A DNA stretch of 62,510 nucleotides, counting the filler, from an uncultured Thermoplasmatales archaeon (lineage in GTDB: Archaea > Thermoplasmatota > E2 > DHVEG-1), in the NCBI GenBank assembly GCA_964517155.1. It is 5 parts of 5 records of this genome, joined end to end, with 100 filler letters (N's around TTAATTAATTAA, not from the genome) between each part and the next. Parts side by side here need not be neighbours in the genome. Positions count along the whole stretch, not along the records: positions 22,324 to 50,941 come from CAZFAZ010000051.1; 4 more parts are not named here. One strand, written 5' to 3'. Positions 38,601 to 47,600 of the stretch are shown one piece after another. Position 1 is the stretch's first letter. Each line of letters opens with the position of its first letter. A program made the position numbers.

Positions 38601-41600
38601 CTTAAGCTTCCTAAAGATTTACTTGTAGAACTTAACACAAATAGTAAATGCAAAAGTTTGTTTTCCATTGATTATTTCAGCAATATGATTAAACCAGTAA
38701 AAGGTGATGATCCTGTAACTATTATGATTGGTAATGACAACCCAATTCGTGTCGAATTTAACATTGCTGAAAACAAAGGTCATGTAACGTATTTACTTGC
38801 ACCAAGAATTGAATCAGAATAAAAAAGATTCTTTAATCCTTTTCCTAGGAGGTTTTTTTATAATAAAAGATGGAAAAAGAAAAAGATACATTGGTTTTAT
38901 AGTTAATACTAAAAATGAAGATATAATAGATAAAAAAGATTTGATTTTTGAAATTAGAAAACAATGTACAAAAATTTTTGATAGAGATTTTAAAAGTCTT
39001 GGCTTGTATCTAATAAACTACAATGAGCACGGCATGGGAATCCTCAGATGCAAACATACTGAAAAAGAAAACACAATAAAATTATTATTAGATATCAAAG
39101 AAATTGGTTCAAAAAAAGTAAGTATCAAAACAATTGCAACGTCTGGAACCATAAAAACATTAAAGCGTAAACACATGCCTAATTTTTAAAGAAAACTAAT
39201 TAATTTTTTGCATGTATATATGCATCTGTATATGCAGGTGAATAACCGGCTGAACGATAAGTTATTAAAAGAAGTTTACATTTCTATTTGTAGAAGTGGA
39301 TGGGATGCAGATAGGAGACAATGATGTTACTCCTGAGACTATACGCCCTCTTATTACGCGGAGTCTTAGGCGAAGTAGTGTACGTAAAAAAATTGCTGAA
39401 TACCTTTTTGATATTAGTCCTAGCGGCAGTTATACATCTGATATTGCATATAATGTTAAAACCACTCCAACAAATGTTATTGGTGCTATTCGTGGTATGA
39501 ACTCACGCTATCGTGATGATGAATCACTCATTGGCCTAAATATAGTTGAACAGATTCAAACAAATAAAAATGTTAAAATTTATCGTCTAACTGATTTTGG
39601 AAAAGAAATAATTAACTCAATGAAGGATAGAAGATAAAAAAATAAATGATTTGAGTAACACCTTTATAAGATTCTTGATTTATCGTTTATCAGTATTCTT
39701 TAAATATTTTTTAATTTCACTTTGATTTAACTTAGTAAAAGACTTATTTTTTTCTATTATGCCTACCTCAAGTTTTTCAGGTAAAATCTTTTTACCAGTT
39801 GATTTTTTAATTGAATTTAAGCCAAGTAAAAATGCTTGTTCTAGACTCATATTTTTTTTATAATTTTTTTCCAAATATTTTAATACATTTTCATTTTTTT
39901 TACCTTCACACATAGCATTATATTCAAGAAACGAACCAGAGGGATCGGTTATAAAAAGATGTGGACCTTTGCAATCAATTCCACCTATGAACATGACCAC
40001 ACCAAAAGGCCGTACAGATTGATATCTTGAAAAAAGATTGATATACGCACAAAGATTTTCAACCAGATTTTTCAAAGGAATATCCTCATCATACCATAGT
40101 TTATTTATCTGTATTTCCTCCATTAAATAATCTATAAGTTGTCTTGCATCTGCAGACAAACCGCAAAAAGTACATGCAATCTGTTTATCAATTTTAAATA
40201 TTTTTTCCAAACTTGAAAACTCAACGGTTTTTAAGAAATCGTTTTTAAGCGCAATAAATAATACTCCATCTTCAAATTTTATCCCAATTGTAGTTGCTCC
40301 TTTTCTAACTGTTTCTCTAGCATATTCTACTTGATATAGCCTGCCCTGTGGCGAAAAAATCGTAATGTCTTCATCGTAAGAAGATTCTTCATCGGTCATA
40401 TTCTTATTCCTGCTAAACATTCTAGAAAAATATTTTGAAAGGCTGTTACTGCAGAGGTATTTAAAAATTTATCTGAAAAAAATCTTGAATTTTTCAAAAA
40501 TAAAGTCGATATAATTATATACTACTTATATGGTAAATATATTGGACAATTTTAGTGGCCAAACATGCCTGATGAAGAAAAAAATAATAACCAAAATAAT
40601 GTAAACAAAAATGGTAATGGGGAACAAATTTTATCTCTTTTAGATGGCGCAAGATCTCAATTTCCAGCTATAGCACCTGAGCTTGAAATCCAAAAAAAAG
40701 TCGCAGCAGATAAATCTCGTCCATTAGACGAAAGACTTGAAGCTTTTGAAGATATCATTGACTCAGAGATAGGCGATACAAATCTTACTCGTGCAAGAAA
40801 CATTGAACGCGAGTTTGGACTACGTCAGATTTTTTTAAAGTTCGAAGGGAGTACTCCTACAGGAACTCAGAAAGATAGAATTGCTTTTGCACAAGTTATG
40901 GATGCATTACGCCGGGGTTATGATACAGTTACTGTTGCAACATGTGGTAATTATGGTGCTGCAATTTCTCTTGCAGCATCTCTTGCAGGCCTTGATTGTG
41001 AAATTTATATTCCTGAAAAATACCATACAGCACGCATAAAAGAAATTGAAGCAAATGGTGCAAGAATCTTTCGTGTCCCTGGAGATTATGAAAAATCAGT
41101 AATAATCTCTCAGGAAAACGCTGATAAAAAAGATTATTATGATGCAAATGCAGGAGGAGATAACACTCTGACTCAGCTACGTGCTTATGGTGAGATTGCT
41201 TATGAAATATACGATGAACTTCGTGATGCCCCTGCGTTTATTGCTATGCCTGTATCAAATGGAACTACACTTGCAGGAATCTATAAAGGCTTTGTAAGTT
41301 TATACAGACGAGGTAAAACCTCAAAAATTCCAAAGATTATAGCAGGTTCTGCATTTGGCAAAAATCCTATTATTCAAGCATATGTAAAAAACCTTCCAGC
41401 TTGTGAAGACTTACAACCAGATAAAATTCATGAAACAGCAGTTAATGAACCTTTGATTAATTGGAGGTCTATTGACGGAGATTATGCTCTTTCAGCTATA
41501 CGTAACTCTGGTGGTTGGGGGGCTTATGCAACTGACAAAAGCATGATTACCTATTCTAAAATGCTAAGGGAAAAAGAAGGACTTAGCGTACTACCTGCTT

Positions 41601-44600: not shown

Positions 44601-47600
44601 TGTTTTGGACTATACGCTATATTTTCCTCAAAACAAGACCTTTCTAACTCTATTATTCTTGGTAAATCTAACGTTGTAGCCTTGCGTATAACCCCAAAAT
44701 CAAGCATTAATTCCGGGAACCATGTCAGGTTCAAAAAGCTTTTGATTAAACTAAAATTATAGTTAAACTTGAATTTTTAACTAAATTTTTTCAAAAAGAA
44801 TATAAATACCTTATTGGCCTGATATTTATAGCAAAAAAATTGGATTTGATATTTAATTAAAAAATGGATGGTATTAGAATATGCCTGACGAAAAAGTAAA
44901 AGATAATCCCACAAAAAAATTACAGGATTTAATTAAAAAAAGAGAAACACATGTAATTGTTGTAAAACAAAATGAGCACAGACCCAACGCCAGAAGAAAC
45001 AACTCAGGCGGTTTTTCTGGAGATGGTTATTCCTCATCTTATGAAGAATAAACTACATTTATTATTTTTTATTTTTTAAAACATCAGCAATAATTAGTAT
45101 ACTTCCAAGTTGCATTTTTACAGAGTTTTTTATAGGCAGTTGATAAAATTTTCCTCGTTCTTGAACGCTTTTGCCAAGTGACTTTATCTCGATATCTAAA
45201 GATTCCATTAATTGACATATCTCTGGAACACCACCTTTTATACATATGCTTTCTGCAACACGCCAAATTTGACCCATGAAAAATAAATCAAATAAATCTG
45301 CTAAAACAACGTTTTCAAATATTTCTGCTTTAGTTACAATTTTTTCTTCTGTTTTTAAAAGAAGTTTTTTTTCATGATCAAGTGAATTCTGTGCATTTAC
45401 CACATGTTTTTCTGCAACATCTAAAAGTAGTGGATCTGCTAACTCTGTATGATTTCTTAAAATATTTAATAGTTTTATTGAATATTTAAGTCTACTTTTT
45501 TTCCTCAAATATCTTTCTTCATTTATTTTTTTATAATTTTTATTAGACGGTTTTTTATCTTGTAGTTTAGACGTAATATACATTGGTACTTCACAGTTGA
45601 AACTAAAACCGCCGACTTTCTTGTGATACCATTCATCGCTGCATGCTCCTCTTTTTATTGTTGTTAAAACCGATGGATCTTTATCTTTATAGTAATCCAA
45701 ATAATCTTTTAATCCATACATCTGATAAAATCCTGGTGAAAACATTTTTCCAAAGGGAACATCAGGTGCAGTATCAGATAGAGGCATCCTGCATATCTTT
45801 GCAAGAGTTGTAAGATCAGAATATACTTCAGACATGTCTTTACTTAAGTAATAATATGCATTATGAAAACCGCAATGATGAAGATTGCATAATAAATCTG
45901 GTTTTTCTTGTTCAAGTATTTTTTTCACAGCAAGGCTCTCAGGTCTTGATTTTGTCCAATGATATTGATCGTATTCAATAGGAAAAGTCCATTCATATTG
46001 ATCTTCCGTGGGTTCTCTGAAGTTTGATTTTGCAAGAGCAGCAAAAGAATCTGGCATGTTAAACCATCCTTCATTAAGTCTCATGCCTCTTTTTTCAAGT
46101 ATTGGTATGAAAAGCCAGCGCCATCCAAAATAGTTTTGCTCAGAGTGCATAGCAAGCCATCTTGCAAAAAATGTAACTACTAGACTTCCTAGTGGTTCAT
46201 CACTATGCGGTACACCGTTTATCAAAGCTGTTTTTTCACTGTTTCCAATTTCAAGCATTATTAGTGGTTCATCATTTATTGTATTGCCTATAACTCTGTG
46301 TTTTACTCCAGGAATTTGTGTTATTTGTTTTATTAGTTCATCTATTTCATCAACTTTTAAAAAACGACTGTACGCAGGTATATCCTTAAAGATTTCATTG
46401 TACTGCTTCAATTATAAATCAACCTCTATTCCAAGTCCTGGTTCTTCACTTGGGATTACAAATCCCTCCTTATATGTTGCGCCACCTTTTACTATATCAT
46501 GTTGAAAATCAAGTGCAGAGTCAAGATCAGCATATCGAACATTTTTGAAAGCACATGCAAAATGTACTCCTGCAGCCATTGCAGCCATTGACTCATTCAT
46601 GCATCCTATCATTACAGGTATCTCTGCGATTTCAGCATAGATGTTTGCTTTGATAGTGTTTGTGATTCCACCAATTTTCATCAGTTTAATGTTTATCATA
46701 TCTGCAAGTTCCATTTTTACTGATCTGAAGCTATCTCTAAGAGTAAGAACTGTTTCATCAGCCATAATTGGAACAGGACATTGCGCTGTGACTTCTTTTA
46801 AAGAATAAAGAAACTTTGCAGGTGTCGGCTGCTCCATTAATTCTATATCTGCTCCAAGGTTTTCAAGGGTAAGTATCACATCTAATGTTTGTTCAACAGT
46901 GTATCCTTCATTTGCATCTAAACGTATTTTAATTTTTGGCCCTACTGCATCTCTTATAGCAAGTACTGCTTCTATATCATGATTTGAATCCATTCCACAT
47001 TTAACTTTTAAACATGTGAAACCCTGTGAGATAAATTCTTTTGCTTTTTTAACCATTAAATCTACAGGGTTTAAACCAATTGTAACAGATGTTTCTATTT
47101 TATCTTTGTAACCACCTAATAATCTATAGACTGGTGTTTCTGCTTTTTTACCAAGGATATCATATAAAGCAATGTTTACGCCTGCTTTCAGCGATTGATT
47201 ACCTTTTAGTTGTTCTTCAATTAAATCATTTAATAAATTTATTCGGGTAGGATCTTTGCCAGGTAAAAAATTTTTAAAAAAACTGTTAAAAGCATTCATC
47301 GCTGAATCCTCTGTTTCAGATGTAACACTATCTGGTGTTGCACAACCCCACCCGGTTATTCCTTTATCGGTCTCAATTCTTATAAAAACATTAATTCCTA
47401 CATCAACAGTCTCATTTGCGATAGCAAAAGGCTCTTTAAGTTTTAATTCAACAGGAACTGCCTTGACGTTAGTTATTCTCATAGCTTAGATGTAACAAAA
47501 TACGGCTAATAATAATTGCTACAAATTATCTAATACTCAGAATCAACAACTTCATCTTCAGGTTCAAACGAAGGCGTTTCTATTTTATAATCATTATATC

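Follow-up and report, generated by a model that had tools for sequence, protein, structure and literature searches.

A conserved set of six enzyme genes in a Thermoplasmatales archaeon that probably inverts and frees the last residue of small acylated amino acids or dipeptides

We report a conserved set of six enzyme genes within the window analyzed here, a 62,510-nucleotide stretch from an uncultured Thermoplasmatales archaeon whose genome is 90.8% complete. Its probable function is to invert, and afterwards release, the terminal amino acid of small compounds, namely acylated amino acids or dipeptides. More specifically, and tentatively, we favor an undescribed two-module set whose target is the C-terminal residue of such a compound, a small N-acylated amino acid or dipeptide. 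D-glutamate and peptides of the bacterial cell wall are not the substrates to which the evidence points. All six ORFs were found at 40565-47482, where the initial annotation had placed them, and are given below with a possible, weakly associated upstream neighbor.

40565-41692, + strand: PALP, threonine-synthase-like PLP enzyme (fold type II) of the 'type A' subtype; PF00291
41749-42804, + strand: DUF1611 protein, distant DgcN relative; PF07755 and PF17396
42788-44245, + strand: PP-loop ATP pyrophosphatase, predicted QueC fold, with a Cys cluster, 485 aa; putative distant MurL relative
44234-44734, - strand: GNAT N-acetyltransferase, RimI-like, last in the minus-strand group; PF00583
45062-46411, - strand: M14-like zinc carboxypeptidase, divergent, cytosolic, with a long helical C-terminal part
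46412-47482, - strand: enolase-superfamily dipeptide epimerase of the Glu24 type; MR_MLE_N and MR_MLE_C
47786-48199, - strand: CxxCxxCC protein (PF03692, E 1.3e-9); possible, weakly associated upstream neighbor

Conservation and linkage of the six genes

The six genes were confirmed as real genes forming a conserved set. Their order was found again in Thermoplasmatota, Bathyarchaeia and one bacterial MAG contig, and because it recurs across these groups the locus is more than a chance assembly. The DUF1611 and PP-loop genes overlap by 17 bases; together with the PALP gene they were colinear on one strand in the 19 fetched loci of the order that have DUF1611, and in a wider search the PP-loop gene lay directly 3' of the DUF1611 gene in 78 of 80 related loci. 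Both domains are also fused in an 855-aa protein (P0131). DUF1611 is constantly paired with the PP-loop enzyme rather than with a racemase. The peptidase-epimerase pairing pointed out in the initial annotation proved to be strictly conserved, the M14 gene being immediately preceded by the epimerase gene at 24 of 24 places in the order and, in the wider sample, at 29 of 30 loci; the thirtieth locus is truncated by a contig end. Of the 20 order loci fetched, 17 had a GNAT homolog, among them loci devoid of the epimerase and M14 genes. CxxCxxCC homologs (39-46% identity) directly preceded the epimerase in 8 of 30 loci; this protein is a possible, weakly associated neighbor.

DUF1611 was carried by 58 of 118 genomes of the order, in agreement with the earlier count of 55 of 117; the epimerase was missing from about half of the carriers, and the M14-like gene was present in 23 of 118 genomes. 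The core genes are spread over many archaeal lineages, acidophilic Thermoplasmatales included. No transporter or regulator accompanies the set in the neighborhoods of related loci, which counts against the scheme proposed below. Literature searches found no description of this gene set.

PALP matched PF00291 (E 9e-54) and exceeded the cut-off of NF004996 (430 bits, cut-off 266); it stayed below that of TIGR00260 thrC (97.5 bits, cut-off 167). Its best PDB matches were threonine synthases (E 6e-25), and the PLP-lysine motif is retained. PALP identity was 73-93% in the order genomes bearing the epimerase, 43-50% in those lacking it and 61-70% to the copies in bacterial cassettes. Where identity reached at least 73%, the epimerase was found in 23 of 26 genomes, and two of the remaining three have the cluster at most about 700 bases from a contig start; at 43-50% identity it was found in none of 28. 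The PALP subtype co-varies with the presence of the epimerase, with the reservation that these counts are not independent because the genomes are kin.

The locus might also consist of two unrelated operons that happen to be adjacent, the epimerase-M14 pair serving general dipeptide degradation and the PALP-DUF1611-PP-loop genes something unconnected. Of the order genomes, the 28 bearing the other PALP subtype kept PALP, DUF1611 and the PP-loop gene and lacked the epimerase and M14; the modules are therefore separable. The single-contig genome G089 has the epimerase, M14, GNAT and PP-loop genes and no DUF1611 or PALP, and two loci (L048, L051) showed the epimerase-M14 pair alone within the fetched stretch. 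This separability and the case of G089 also count against the scheme proposed below. On the other hand, the two modules are neighbors in three different arrangements across phyla. In the Bathyarchaeia, all six genes occur again in a different order (L050, L079, L080, L086), and PALP was relocated beside the epimerase-M14 pair in L089 and L090. In the bacterial cassettes, the hydrolase and the PP-loop enzyme form one fusion protein, and the epimerase gene comes next in the same operon. These arrangements and the PALP counts argue for functional linkage, and the two-operon explanation, already weakened by the linkage counts, appears improbable.

The hydrolase is interchangeable. One relative (G048, locus L020) and the bacterial cassettes have no M14; there, PALP, DUF1611 and the epimerase are accompanied by a PP-loop enzyme with a fused creatininase/MftE-like domain, which takes the place of M14. 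Such fusions are represented by P0127, P0168 and P0172.

The PP-loop enzyme and a biosynthetic alternative

The 485-aa protein, which the initial annotation had left unidentified after a failed fold, had no family match in Pfam or NCBIfam. Its SSGGKxS motif (162-168) is invariant, as are C348, C361 and C364; C351 and C367 are conserved almost throughout. The AF2 model (pLDDT 91.8) gave QatC (5.8e-5), Cap9, QueC, LarE and TtuA as the best Foldseek matches, and on this modeled structure the protein is a QueC-fold PP-loop ATP pyrophosphatase, central to the set. With QueC, Cap9 and QatC it has the PP-loop motif and a C-terminal Cys cluster in common; unlike them, it shows no sequence similarity detectable with Pfam or NCBIfam and has no deazapurine genes near its locus. 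Moreover, it is about twice the length of QueC and has an extra N-terminal domain.

In the Atlas search, based on language-model features, MurL families made up 28 of 30 matches. Relatives found by profile search (P0263, P0257 and others) matched NF041275 MurL with E-values of 6e-12 to 5e-6, at scores of 25-45 bits that stay far under its cut-off of 700, whereas the PP-loop enzyme itself gave no match to this model even at E <= 10. A distant relationship to the ATP-dependent peptide epimerase MurL is thus suggested, by transitive similarity through intermediates. That the MurL link is only transitive, apart from the language-model features, counts against the proposed scheme. MurL is described as an epimerase that acts on the C-terminal Glu of a peptide in the L-to-D direction only, which is a biosynthetic direction; it depends on ATP and Mg and forms AMP (PMC8788868, PMC5808125). 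As in the MurD2-MurL system described in these papers, by which Xanthomonas obtains the D-Glu of its peptidoglycan, an enzyme of broadly the same lineage that uses ATP is present here; MurL activates the alpha-carboxylate of an N-acylated C-terminal residue, which leads to inversion. In contrast to that system, the set described here is hosted by an archaeon, lacks a MurD2 ligase and combines the PP-loop protein with DUF1611, a PLP enzyme, an enolase-type epimerase and a hydrolase.

The nearest solved folds, QatC, Cap9 and QueC, form amides and are not epimerases. This counts against the proposed scheme and favors a biosynthetic cassette. In it, an unusual amino acid built by the PLP enzyme would be acylated and amidated or ligated by DUF1611 and the PP-loop enzyme, and then tailored by the epimerase, hydrolase and GNAT into a small dipeptide-like metabolite that contains a D-residue or is amidated. 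Such a product might be an osmolyte, a signal or a cofactor part, loosely resembling N-acetylglutaminylglutamine amide synthesis. The direction of MurL, the typically synthetic character of threonine-synthase-like enzymes, the very high conservation of PALP between archaea and bacteria, the lineage range of the core genes, a PP-loop::methyltransferase fusion (P0133) and the EamA exporters adjoining the DUF1611/PP-loop pair in two loci all agree with biosynthesis. However, an amide-cutting hydrolase would be an odd last biosynthetic step, no carrier protein, ATP-grasp or NRPS gene and no consistent exporter were found in the loci, and the patchy distribution among the 118 genomes is no less compatible with a catabolic trait that is optional. 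We regard the biosynthetic cassette as possible though rather unlikely.

Relations to D-glutamate and murein-peptide pathways

The initial annotation proposed that DUF1611 N-acetylates D-Glu as DgcN does and that the M14 protein and the epimerase act as MpaA-YcjG on murein stem peptides (L-Ala-gamma-D-Glu-DAP to L-Ala-D-Glu to L-Ala-L-Glu), the archaeon feeding on the D-Glu and cell-wall peptides of dead bacteria. The distant relationship of DUF1611 to DgcN was borne out by its match to PDB 7xrj (E 2.7e-34, residues 64-344). In both systems, an enzyme of the DUF1611 family is joined by a racemase or epimerase of the enolase superfamily, an amide is subsequently hydrolyzed, and the stereo-inversion would pass through an acylated intermediate. 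However, DUF1611 scored 168 bits against the DgcN model NF041892 (cut-off 480) and the epimerase 149 bits against the DgcA model (cut-off 400), both far below the equivalog cut-offs. In addition, the epimerase here belongs to the dipeptide type and has a D-x-D motif (D319, D321), and the constant partners of DUF1611 are the PP-loop ATPase and the PLP enzyme, for which the D-Glu reading leaves no role. The novelty claimed for DgcN-type D-Glu catabolism in Archaea also falls away, as such catabolism is reportedly already in print, judging by the title of Yu et al. 2023 (ISME J 17:537).

The closeness of the epimerase to YkfB was upheld, with 1jpm/1tkk as the best PDB match (237 bits, E 2.4e-69). 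Like YkfB of the B. subtilis ykfA-D system, which recycles murein peptides, it keeps all catalytic residues, and K159, K161, D189, E217, D242, K266, D319, D321 and E24 were invariant in 20 of 20 archaeal sequences. YkfB and YcjG epimerize the C-terminal residue of dipeptides, with K162 and K268 as the bases (PMC5808125); both lysines are retained here. The position of E24, conserved also in six of six bacterial cassette copies, is occupied by Arg24 in B. subtilis YkfB, and YcjG has an Arg in the same loop. We take YkfB Arg24 to bind the Glu side chain of the substrate. Because a conserved Glu stands where the Glu-specific enzyme has Arg, L-Ala-D/L-Glu does not appear to be the substrate. The scores against the L-Ala-D/L-Glu-epimerase equivalogs (236 bits, cut-off 500; 99.8 bits, cut-off 343) likewise speak against the specificity assumed before.

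The M14-like protein reached 18 bits against PF00246, under the cut-off of 21.6; 15 of 17 family members matched this model (best E 1.8e-6). As reported earlier, its relatives, of which 415 were found here in the database, are, where named, 'hypothetical', some with a precomputed PF00246 match, and the HxxE motif (H69, E72), H178/H179 and E274 are invariant, which held in sets of 19 and of 17 sequences. Its profile aligned HxxE and NLH to carboxypeptidase M (E 0.076), and M14 clusters accounted for 29 of 30 Atlas matches. The AF2 model, built here from a 19-sequence alignment, had a pLDDT of 55.2 instead of the 86.6 given earlier. Foldseek nevertheless returned 69 matches at E <= 0.001, almost all of them, among the matches listed, M14 carboxypeptidases, an AAV8-receptor entry also being present; the best match was 7eqx (3e-6), and 1cpx scored 2.6e-5. 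The GNAT matched PF00583 (E 7.5e-18) and scored 70.5 bits against TIGR01575 rimI, under the cut-off of 86.4.

The adjacency of mpaA and ycjG stated in the initial annotation is true in E. coli K-12, with mppA nearby, and there as here an M14 peptidase gene adjoins a dipeptide epimerase gene. Other points in favor of murein-peptide use are the Asp/Glu-racemase-family gene, present on another contig, and the build-up of bacterial-wall D-amino acids described for such sediments (PMC6752024). In agreement with the initial annotation, an alanine-racemase-fold gene was also found elsewhere in the genome. Nevertheless, the E. coli genes are convergent whereas those of the archaeon are co-directional and abutting, and the similarity to MpaA (E 0.016) covers only the N-terminal zinc motifs, with 449 aa and a helical C-terminal part here versus 242 aa. 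Neither an S66 LD-carboxypeptidase nor NlpC/P60 nor an SBP_bac_5 (Opp-type) binding protein was found in the 90.8%-complete genome, and likewise no murein-peptide transporter. Together with the Glu24 substitution and the missed cut-offs, these results make the use of D-Glu and murein stem peptides improbable. What stood of the initial annotation is a set of linked enzymes of amino-acid or peptide stereochemistry, with which the known relatives of all enzymes of the set deal, and a functionally linked locus is supported.

Proposed scheme and its meaning

The analyses above establish that the genes are real, conserved and linked, along with the folds and catalytic residues of their products. For the favored two-module set, we infer the following chemical steps, together with their direction and substrate. 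Module 1, on the plus strand, would comprise DUF1611 and the QueC-fold PP-loop enzyme, here with the threonine-synthase-like PLP enzyme. DUF1611 would form an amide on an amino acid, a role suggested because DgcN is its relative, and the PP-loop enzyme may adenylate the free alpha-carboxylate in an ATP-dependent manner, followed either by one-direction inversion at the alpha-carbon, as in MurL, or by amide ligation, as in QueC, Cap9 and QatC. In module 2, on the minus strand, the enolase-type epimerase would interconvert L-Xaa-L-Yaa and L-Xaa-D-Yaa, and the M14 carboxypeptidase would remove the C-terminal residue. The GNAT may cap or supply an amine, and the PLP enzyme could be the source or the consumer of the amino acid concerned. 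In short, acylation/adenylation, inversion and hydrolysis would together use energy to convert one amino acid between its D and L forms. Were the PP-loop enzyme an epimerase, an enolase-type epimerase in the same set would seem redundant, and the scheme explains no role for the PLP enzyme; both points count against it.

The lineages that carry the set are described as living on detrital organic matter, which they break down in sediments; in the White Oak River, whose sediments are rich in Thermoprofundales and Bathyarchaeota, both the D/L ratios and the activity of D-Phe-peptidase are described as increasing with depth (PMC6752024). The cluster is present in MAG SG8-52-3, the contig name of which contains WOR. 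In such peptide-scavenging sediment archaea, the likeliest use of the set would be to make the D-residues of old detrital peptides usable.

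The six-gene cluster and its PP-loop enzyme

The cluster is located on contig C51 (window positions 22324-50941, 28.6 kb) of a 1.59-Mb MAG composed of 91 contigs and 90.8% complete. Positions 1-22323 and 50942-62510 of the window are outside C51 or consist of N, so the window is discontinuous in the genome. The named relatives include Thermoplasmatales archaeon SG8-52-3. Region 40565-47482 was filled by six ORFs, five of which could be named with the use of Pfam and NCBIfam:

PALP, a threonine-synthase-like PLP enzyme, + strand, 375 aa
DUF1611 protein, + strand, 351 aa, starting 56 bases past PALP
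PP-loop ORF, + strand, 485 aa, overlapping the DUF1611 gene by 17 bases
GNAT N-acetyltransferase, - strand, 166 aa, 327 bases beyond the M14-like gene, its 3' end overlapping the end of the 485-aa ORF
M14-like protein, - strand, 449 aa, abutting the epimerase gene
Epimerase of the enolase superfamily, - strand, 356 aa

A 56-aa ORF (44881-45051, +) gave no tblastn match in 20 related loci and was not counted as a gene. Upstream of the epimerase lies a gene of the CxxCxxCC family (PF03692; 47786-48199, -), a homolog of which (39-46% identity) was found at the corresponding site in 8 of the 30 loci collected with the M14-like profile.

The 485-aa protein matched no Pfam or NCBIfam model, even at E ≤ 10. 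Inspection by eye revealed an SGGKES PP-loop and a C-x2-C ... C-x2-C-x2-C cluster; the PP-loop motif (S162-S168) was invariant, and so were C348, C361, and C364 in 28 sequences. The AF2 model based on a 28-sequence alignment reached pLDDT 91.8 and pTM 0.91, and its best Foldseek matches in the PDB were QatC (E 5.8e-5), followed by Cap9, QueC, LarE, TtuA, NcsA, and MnmA. The protein has the SGGxxS motif, the alpha/beta fold, and the C-terminal Cys cluster of the QueC-like ATP pyrophosphatases. In the Atlas, MurL families constituted 28 of the best 30 clusters (score 0.96). An exhaustive search of 1.84 billion representatives with a profile of 20 orthologs detected 415 relatives at E ≤ 0.001, and half of those scanned (11 of 22) matched the MurL model NF041275 with E from 6e-12 to 5e-6, at 25-45 bits versus the cut-off of 700. 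The window protein itself gave no match to this model, whether the threshold was E ≤ 0.01 or E ≤ 10. An adjacent MurD2 ligase gene and a peptidoglycan context were absent, the neighbors being DUF1611, PALP, and GNAT genes and the host an archaeon. Because of the Atlas, profile, NCBIfam, and Foldseek results, the 485-aa protein is assigned as a QueC-fold PP-loop ATP pyrophosphatase, distantly related to MurL and not MurL itself.

Several relatives were fusion proteins, in which the PP-loop part was joined to DUF1611 (P0131, 855 aa), to a creatininase/MftE-like domain (P0127, P0168, and P0172), or to a methyltransferase (P0133). Prediction of the complex between DUF1611 and the PP-loop enzyme returned scores of 0.00 and 0.00, which speak neither for nor against binding.

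Conserved core pair and accessory module

Among the 118 genomes of the order, which are kin and not independent, matches were found for DUF1611 in 58, the PP-loop gene in 57, PALP in 70 (E ≤ 1e-20, paralogs included), the M14-like gene in 23, and the epimerase in 25. The PALP, DUF1611, and PP-loop genes lay colinearly on one strand among the matches listed in the order. The epimerase gene immediately preceded the M14-like gene in 24 of 24 places, the two being 3 to 23 bases apart. The six-gene order of the window was retained in 15 of the 20 order loci that were fetched and, with GNAT missing, in 2 more.

The other three fetched loci differed. Genome G113 contained PALP, DUF1611, the PP-loop gene, and GNAT only. 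Genome G089, a single contig, carried the epimerase, M14-like, GNAT, and PP-loop genes and lacked DUF1611 and PALP (locus L013, G089:C1:421000-437000); the PP-loop gene was shortened at its start there, and approximately 800 non-coding bases occupied the DUF1611/PALP site. In genome G048 (locus L020), all the cassette genes were on the same strand: PALP, DUF1611 (43% identical), a 782-aa PP-loop::creatininase fusion (PF02633, E 1e-69), and an epimerase (43% identical), with no M14-like gene.

The 30 loci collected with the M14-like profile came from Thermoplasmatota, three Bathyarchaeia, a "Methanobacteriota" MAG, and an "Eubacteriales" MAG. The epimerase was immediately upstream of the M14-like gene in 29 of them, and the thirtieth locus begins inside the M14-like gene. 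All six genes were present in another arrangement in L050 (MCG-6 AD8-1), and the epimerase-M14 pair occurred by itself in L048 and L051. The 80 loci collected with the DUF1611 profile covered many Thermoplasmata (including Thermoplasma and Cuniculiplasma), Aciduliprofundum, Bathyarchaeia, Nitrososphaerales, a Methanodesulfokora MAG, and two bacterial MAGs. All were of the cassette type except L128 with DUF1611 alone. The PP-loop gene directly followed DUF1611 in 78 of the 80; of the other two, one was truncated at the end of its contig and the second, from Acidobacteria, had no PP-loop gene. PALP was found immediately upstream in 66 loci and next to epimerase-M14 in 2 (L089 and L090), 5 loci were uninformative due to contig ends, and 7 had no PALP despite room for it. 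DUF1611 and the PP-loop ATPase form a conserved core pair, with the PLP enzyme as a frequent partner.

Scanning the flanks of the distant loci for transporters, regulators, and murein genes gave unrelated housekeeping genes only. Single loci showed the following features. In two Thermoplasmata/Aciduliprofundum loci that have no PLP gene (L110:9505-10356 and L101:2636-3484), the core pair was followed by an EamA-family transporter gene. In L089 and L090, from Bathyarchaeota MAGs, the PLP gene was relocated from the DUF1611 operon to directly before epimerase-M14, and in L089 a deoxyhypusine synthase gene separated the DUF1611 group from the epimerase-M14 group. One Thermoplasmatales MAG encoded a C25 gingipain-like peptidase approximately 1 kb downstream of epimerase-M14 (L045:4099-5922, -), with a quinolinate synthetase (NadA) gene in between. 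The full six-gene set, at 47-79% identity and with a sigma-70 factor gene nearby, was present in contig CAZIDF010000001.1 (307,722 bases; L047/L062) of a bacterial MAG labelled Eubacteriales; this looks like either a recent transfer between domains or a binning/assembly error.

The subtype of the PLP enzyme followed the presence of the epimerase. PALP 73-93% identical to that of the window was encoded in 26 order genomes (the window's own included), and 23 of these had the epimerase; of the three genomes in which it was not found, two (G026 and G090) had the cluster within about 700 bases of a contig start. PALP of just 43-50% identity was encoded in 28 order genomes, and neither the epimerase nor the M14-like gene was found in these. 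In the wider set, all 18 epimerase + M14 loci had PALP of 67-86% identity wherever PALP was visible, and the type with ≤ 50% identity never occurred with epimerase + M14. In nine fusion-type loci from bacteria, the identity to the window proteins was 61-70% for PALP, 38-42% for DUF1611, and 29-35% for the PP-loop part. Altogether, an accessory module composed of a dipeptide epimerase with Glu at position 24 and a predicted hydrolase cleaving at the C-terminus accompanies one PLP subtype; the place of this hydrolase is taken by the M14-like protein in the window and by a creatininase/MftE-like domain elsewhere.

The PALP protein of the window scored 97.5 bits against the threonine synthase model TIGR00260 (thrC), with the cut-off of 167, and 430 bits against NF004996 ("PRK06381"), above the cut-off of 266. 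Its operon with DUF1611 argues for a role other than threonine synthesis. The TIGR00260 cut-off was reached in 14 of the 14 control genomes and by no gene of the studied genome, where the cluster's own PALP was the best match.

Candidate substrates of the DUF1611 protein, epimerase, and M14-like protein

The initial annotation interpreted the locus as DgcN-type D-Glu catabolism, new to Archaea, combined with salvage of murein peptides. The D-Glu part was not supported. The DUF1611 protein reached 167.9 and 167.7 bits against the DgcN model NF041892, short of the equivalog cut-off of 480. The sole match of the genome to the partner model DgcA (NF042940, cut-off 400) was the epimerase of the window, at 148.9 bits, and about half of the DUF1611 carriers of the order had no epimerase at all. 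DgcN in halophilic archaea already appears in the title of a paper, which counts against the claimed novelty. As for racemases elsewhere in the genome, one gene of the Asp/Glu-racemase family and one with the alanine-racemase fold were found. The only Asp/Glu-racemase-family gene lies off C51 (G000:C10:8564-10120); approximately 370 bases separate it from another gene of the PALP family (315-aa frame), and the two may be another small D-amino-acid pair.

The kinship of the epimerase with B. subtilis YkfB was confirmed. YkfB (1jpm/1tkk) was its closest solved relative at 237 bits, followed by other dipeptide epimerases. The catalytic set (KxK, the D/E/D metal ligands, and Lys as the second base) was complete: K159, K161, D189, E217, D242, and K266 aligned to YkfB and were invariant in 20 of 20 epimerase sequences. 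A passage of PMC5808125 names K162 and K268 as the YkfB bases. They correspond to K161 and K266 of the window protein. The D-x-D motif at the end of strand 8 (D319 and D321) was invariant in the same number of sequences, 20 of 20, and kept in all 5 complete bacterial cassette copies. The Arg expected in the 20s loop was absent: at the position of YkfB Arg24, all 20 archaeal copies, among them the divergent one of G048, and all 6 copies from bacterial cassettes had Glu24. In E. coli YcjG, the flanking positions of that loop are occupied by Arg. Klenchin and co-workers are said to have described in 2004 that Arg24 of YkfB binds the side-chain carboxylate of Glu, and the D-x-D pair reportedly holds the N-terminal ammonium of the dipeptide. 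If these roles are right, the substrate would be a dipeptide with a free N-terminus and a C-terminal residue other than Glu. The scores against the L-Ala-D/L-Glu equivalogs were 236 for NF041118 (cut-off 500) and 99.8 for NF011708 (cut-off 343), and together with Glu24 in place of Arg24, they oppose the initial assignment to the L-Ala-D/L-Glu type.

The size of the M14-like family and its conserved residues were as described initially. The database held 415 relatives, the named ones being "hypothetical" and some having a precomputed PF00246 match. H69, E72, H178, H179, and E274 were invariant, corresponding to HxxE and later His as zinc ligands and a candidate catalytic Glu; the assignment of E274 as that Glu is putative and follows from its position and invariance. 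PF00246 matched the window protein at 18 bits, below the gathering score of 21.6, and 15 of 17 relatives at E ≤ 0.1, with the best value of 1.8e-6. An AstE/AspA-type deacylase was also considered and dropped, as Pfam at E ≤ 10 gave PF00246 only. In the Atlas, M14 proteins of approximately 450 aa made up 29 of the best 30 clusters. The AF2 model, built on a shallow alignment of 19 sequences, was poor (pLDDT 55.2), and the Foldseek matches listed for it were almost all M14, with E from 3e-6 and TM-scores of 0.27-0.40. A search with residues 170-300 gave nothing relevant. The family profile aligned HxxE and N-L-H with human carboxypeptidase M (E 0.076, residues 32-187 only). Using hhalign, E. coli MpaA was aligned at HxxE and NLH (E 0.016, 119 columns) and canonical archaeal M14 proteins in two short motif regions alone (E 0.033 and 0.043); both comparisons covered just the HxxE and S-x-P-E-T regions. 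No canonical M14 peptidase was found in this genome; such proteins were present in 96 of the 118 order genomes at E ≤ 1e-10.

The murein-peptide reading was modelled on the mpaA-ycjG pairing in E. coli K-12, which we verified: the two genes are neighbors, with mppA close by. Extension of this pairing to the archaeon was not supported, given the weak match to MpaA and no S66 LD-carboxypeptidase, NlpC/P60, or SBP_bac_5 binding protein found in the genome; the control genomes matched all three families, and at 90.8% completeness their absence is not proven.

A putative D-residue cycle

The predicted activities suggest that the set would make an amide, activate a carboxylate with ATP, invert the alpha-carbon, and carry out a hydrolysis, in the direction of either salvage or biosynthesis. 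Asp259 of the M14-like protein, 15 residues N-terminal of E274, was invariant. By a putative local match to the carboxypeptidase A/B motif, it would take the position of residue 255, the S1' specificity residue, for which carboxypeptidase B has Asp. The conservation of Glu24 in the epimerase and this candidate match raise the rather improbable idea that the epimerase and the M14-like protein are specialized for dipeptides whose C-terminal residue is basic (Arg, Lys, or Orn) and, with DUF1611 and the PP-loop enzyme as partners, constitute a previously unknown ATP-driven D-residue cycle. The substrates would then be the expected products of Arg-specific C25 gingipain-like peptidases, and the epimerase would rescue their aged, racemized D-forms. 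Through the cycle, D-residues in ancient detrital protein would become usable as L-amino acids. Such a cycle would be common to Thermoprofundales, Bathyarchaeia, and some sediment bacteria. According to passages of PMC6752024, D/L ratios and D-Phe-peptidase and Orn-peptidase activities increase with depth in the White Oak River sediments, and Arg-specific C25 peptidases account for over 40% of the predicted exported peptidases there.

No description of the gene set was found in the literature on DUF1611, DgcN/D-glutamate, N-acetyl-D-glutamate racemase, MurL/MurD2, and Thermoprofundales D-amino acids; among the papers naming "DUF1611", no title or abstract was on this protein family. With respect to annotation, the names "threonine synthase", "DgcN", and "L-Ala-D/L-Glu epimerase" should be avoided for the PLP, DUF1611, and epimerase genes of the cluster, respectively. 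If the set does act by amide formation, ATP-dependent activation, inversion, and hydrolysis, two archaeal groups that are among the most abundant in marine sediments and various anaerobic bacteria would have in common an undescribed, energy-spending route for handling amino-acid or dipeptide stereochemistry. Functions would be provided for three large orphan groups, i.e., the non-DgcN DUF1611 proteins, the MurL-like PP-loop family, and the M14 branch of approximately 450 aa, and the sole known type of ATP-dependent peptide epimerase would gain a much wider family. The use of old, racemized organic matter by slow-living microbes of the subsurface would also be concerned.
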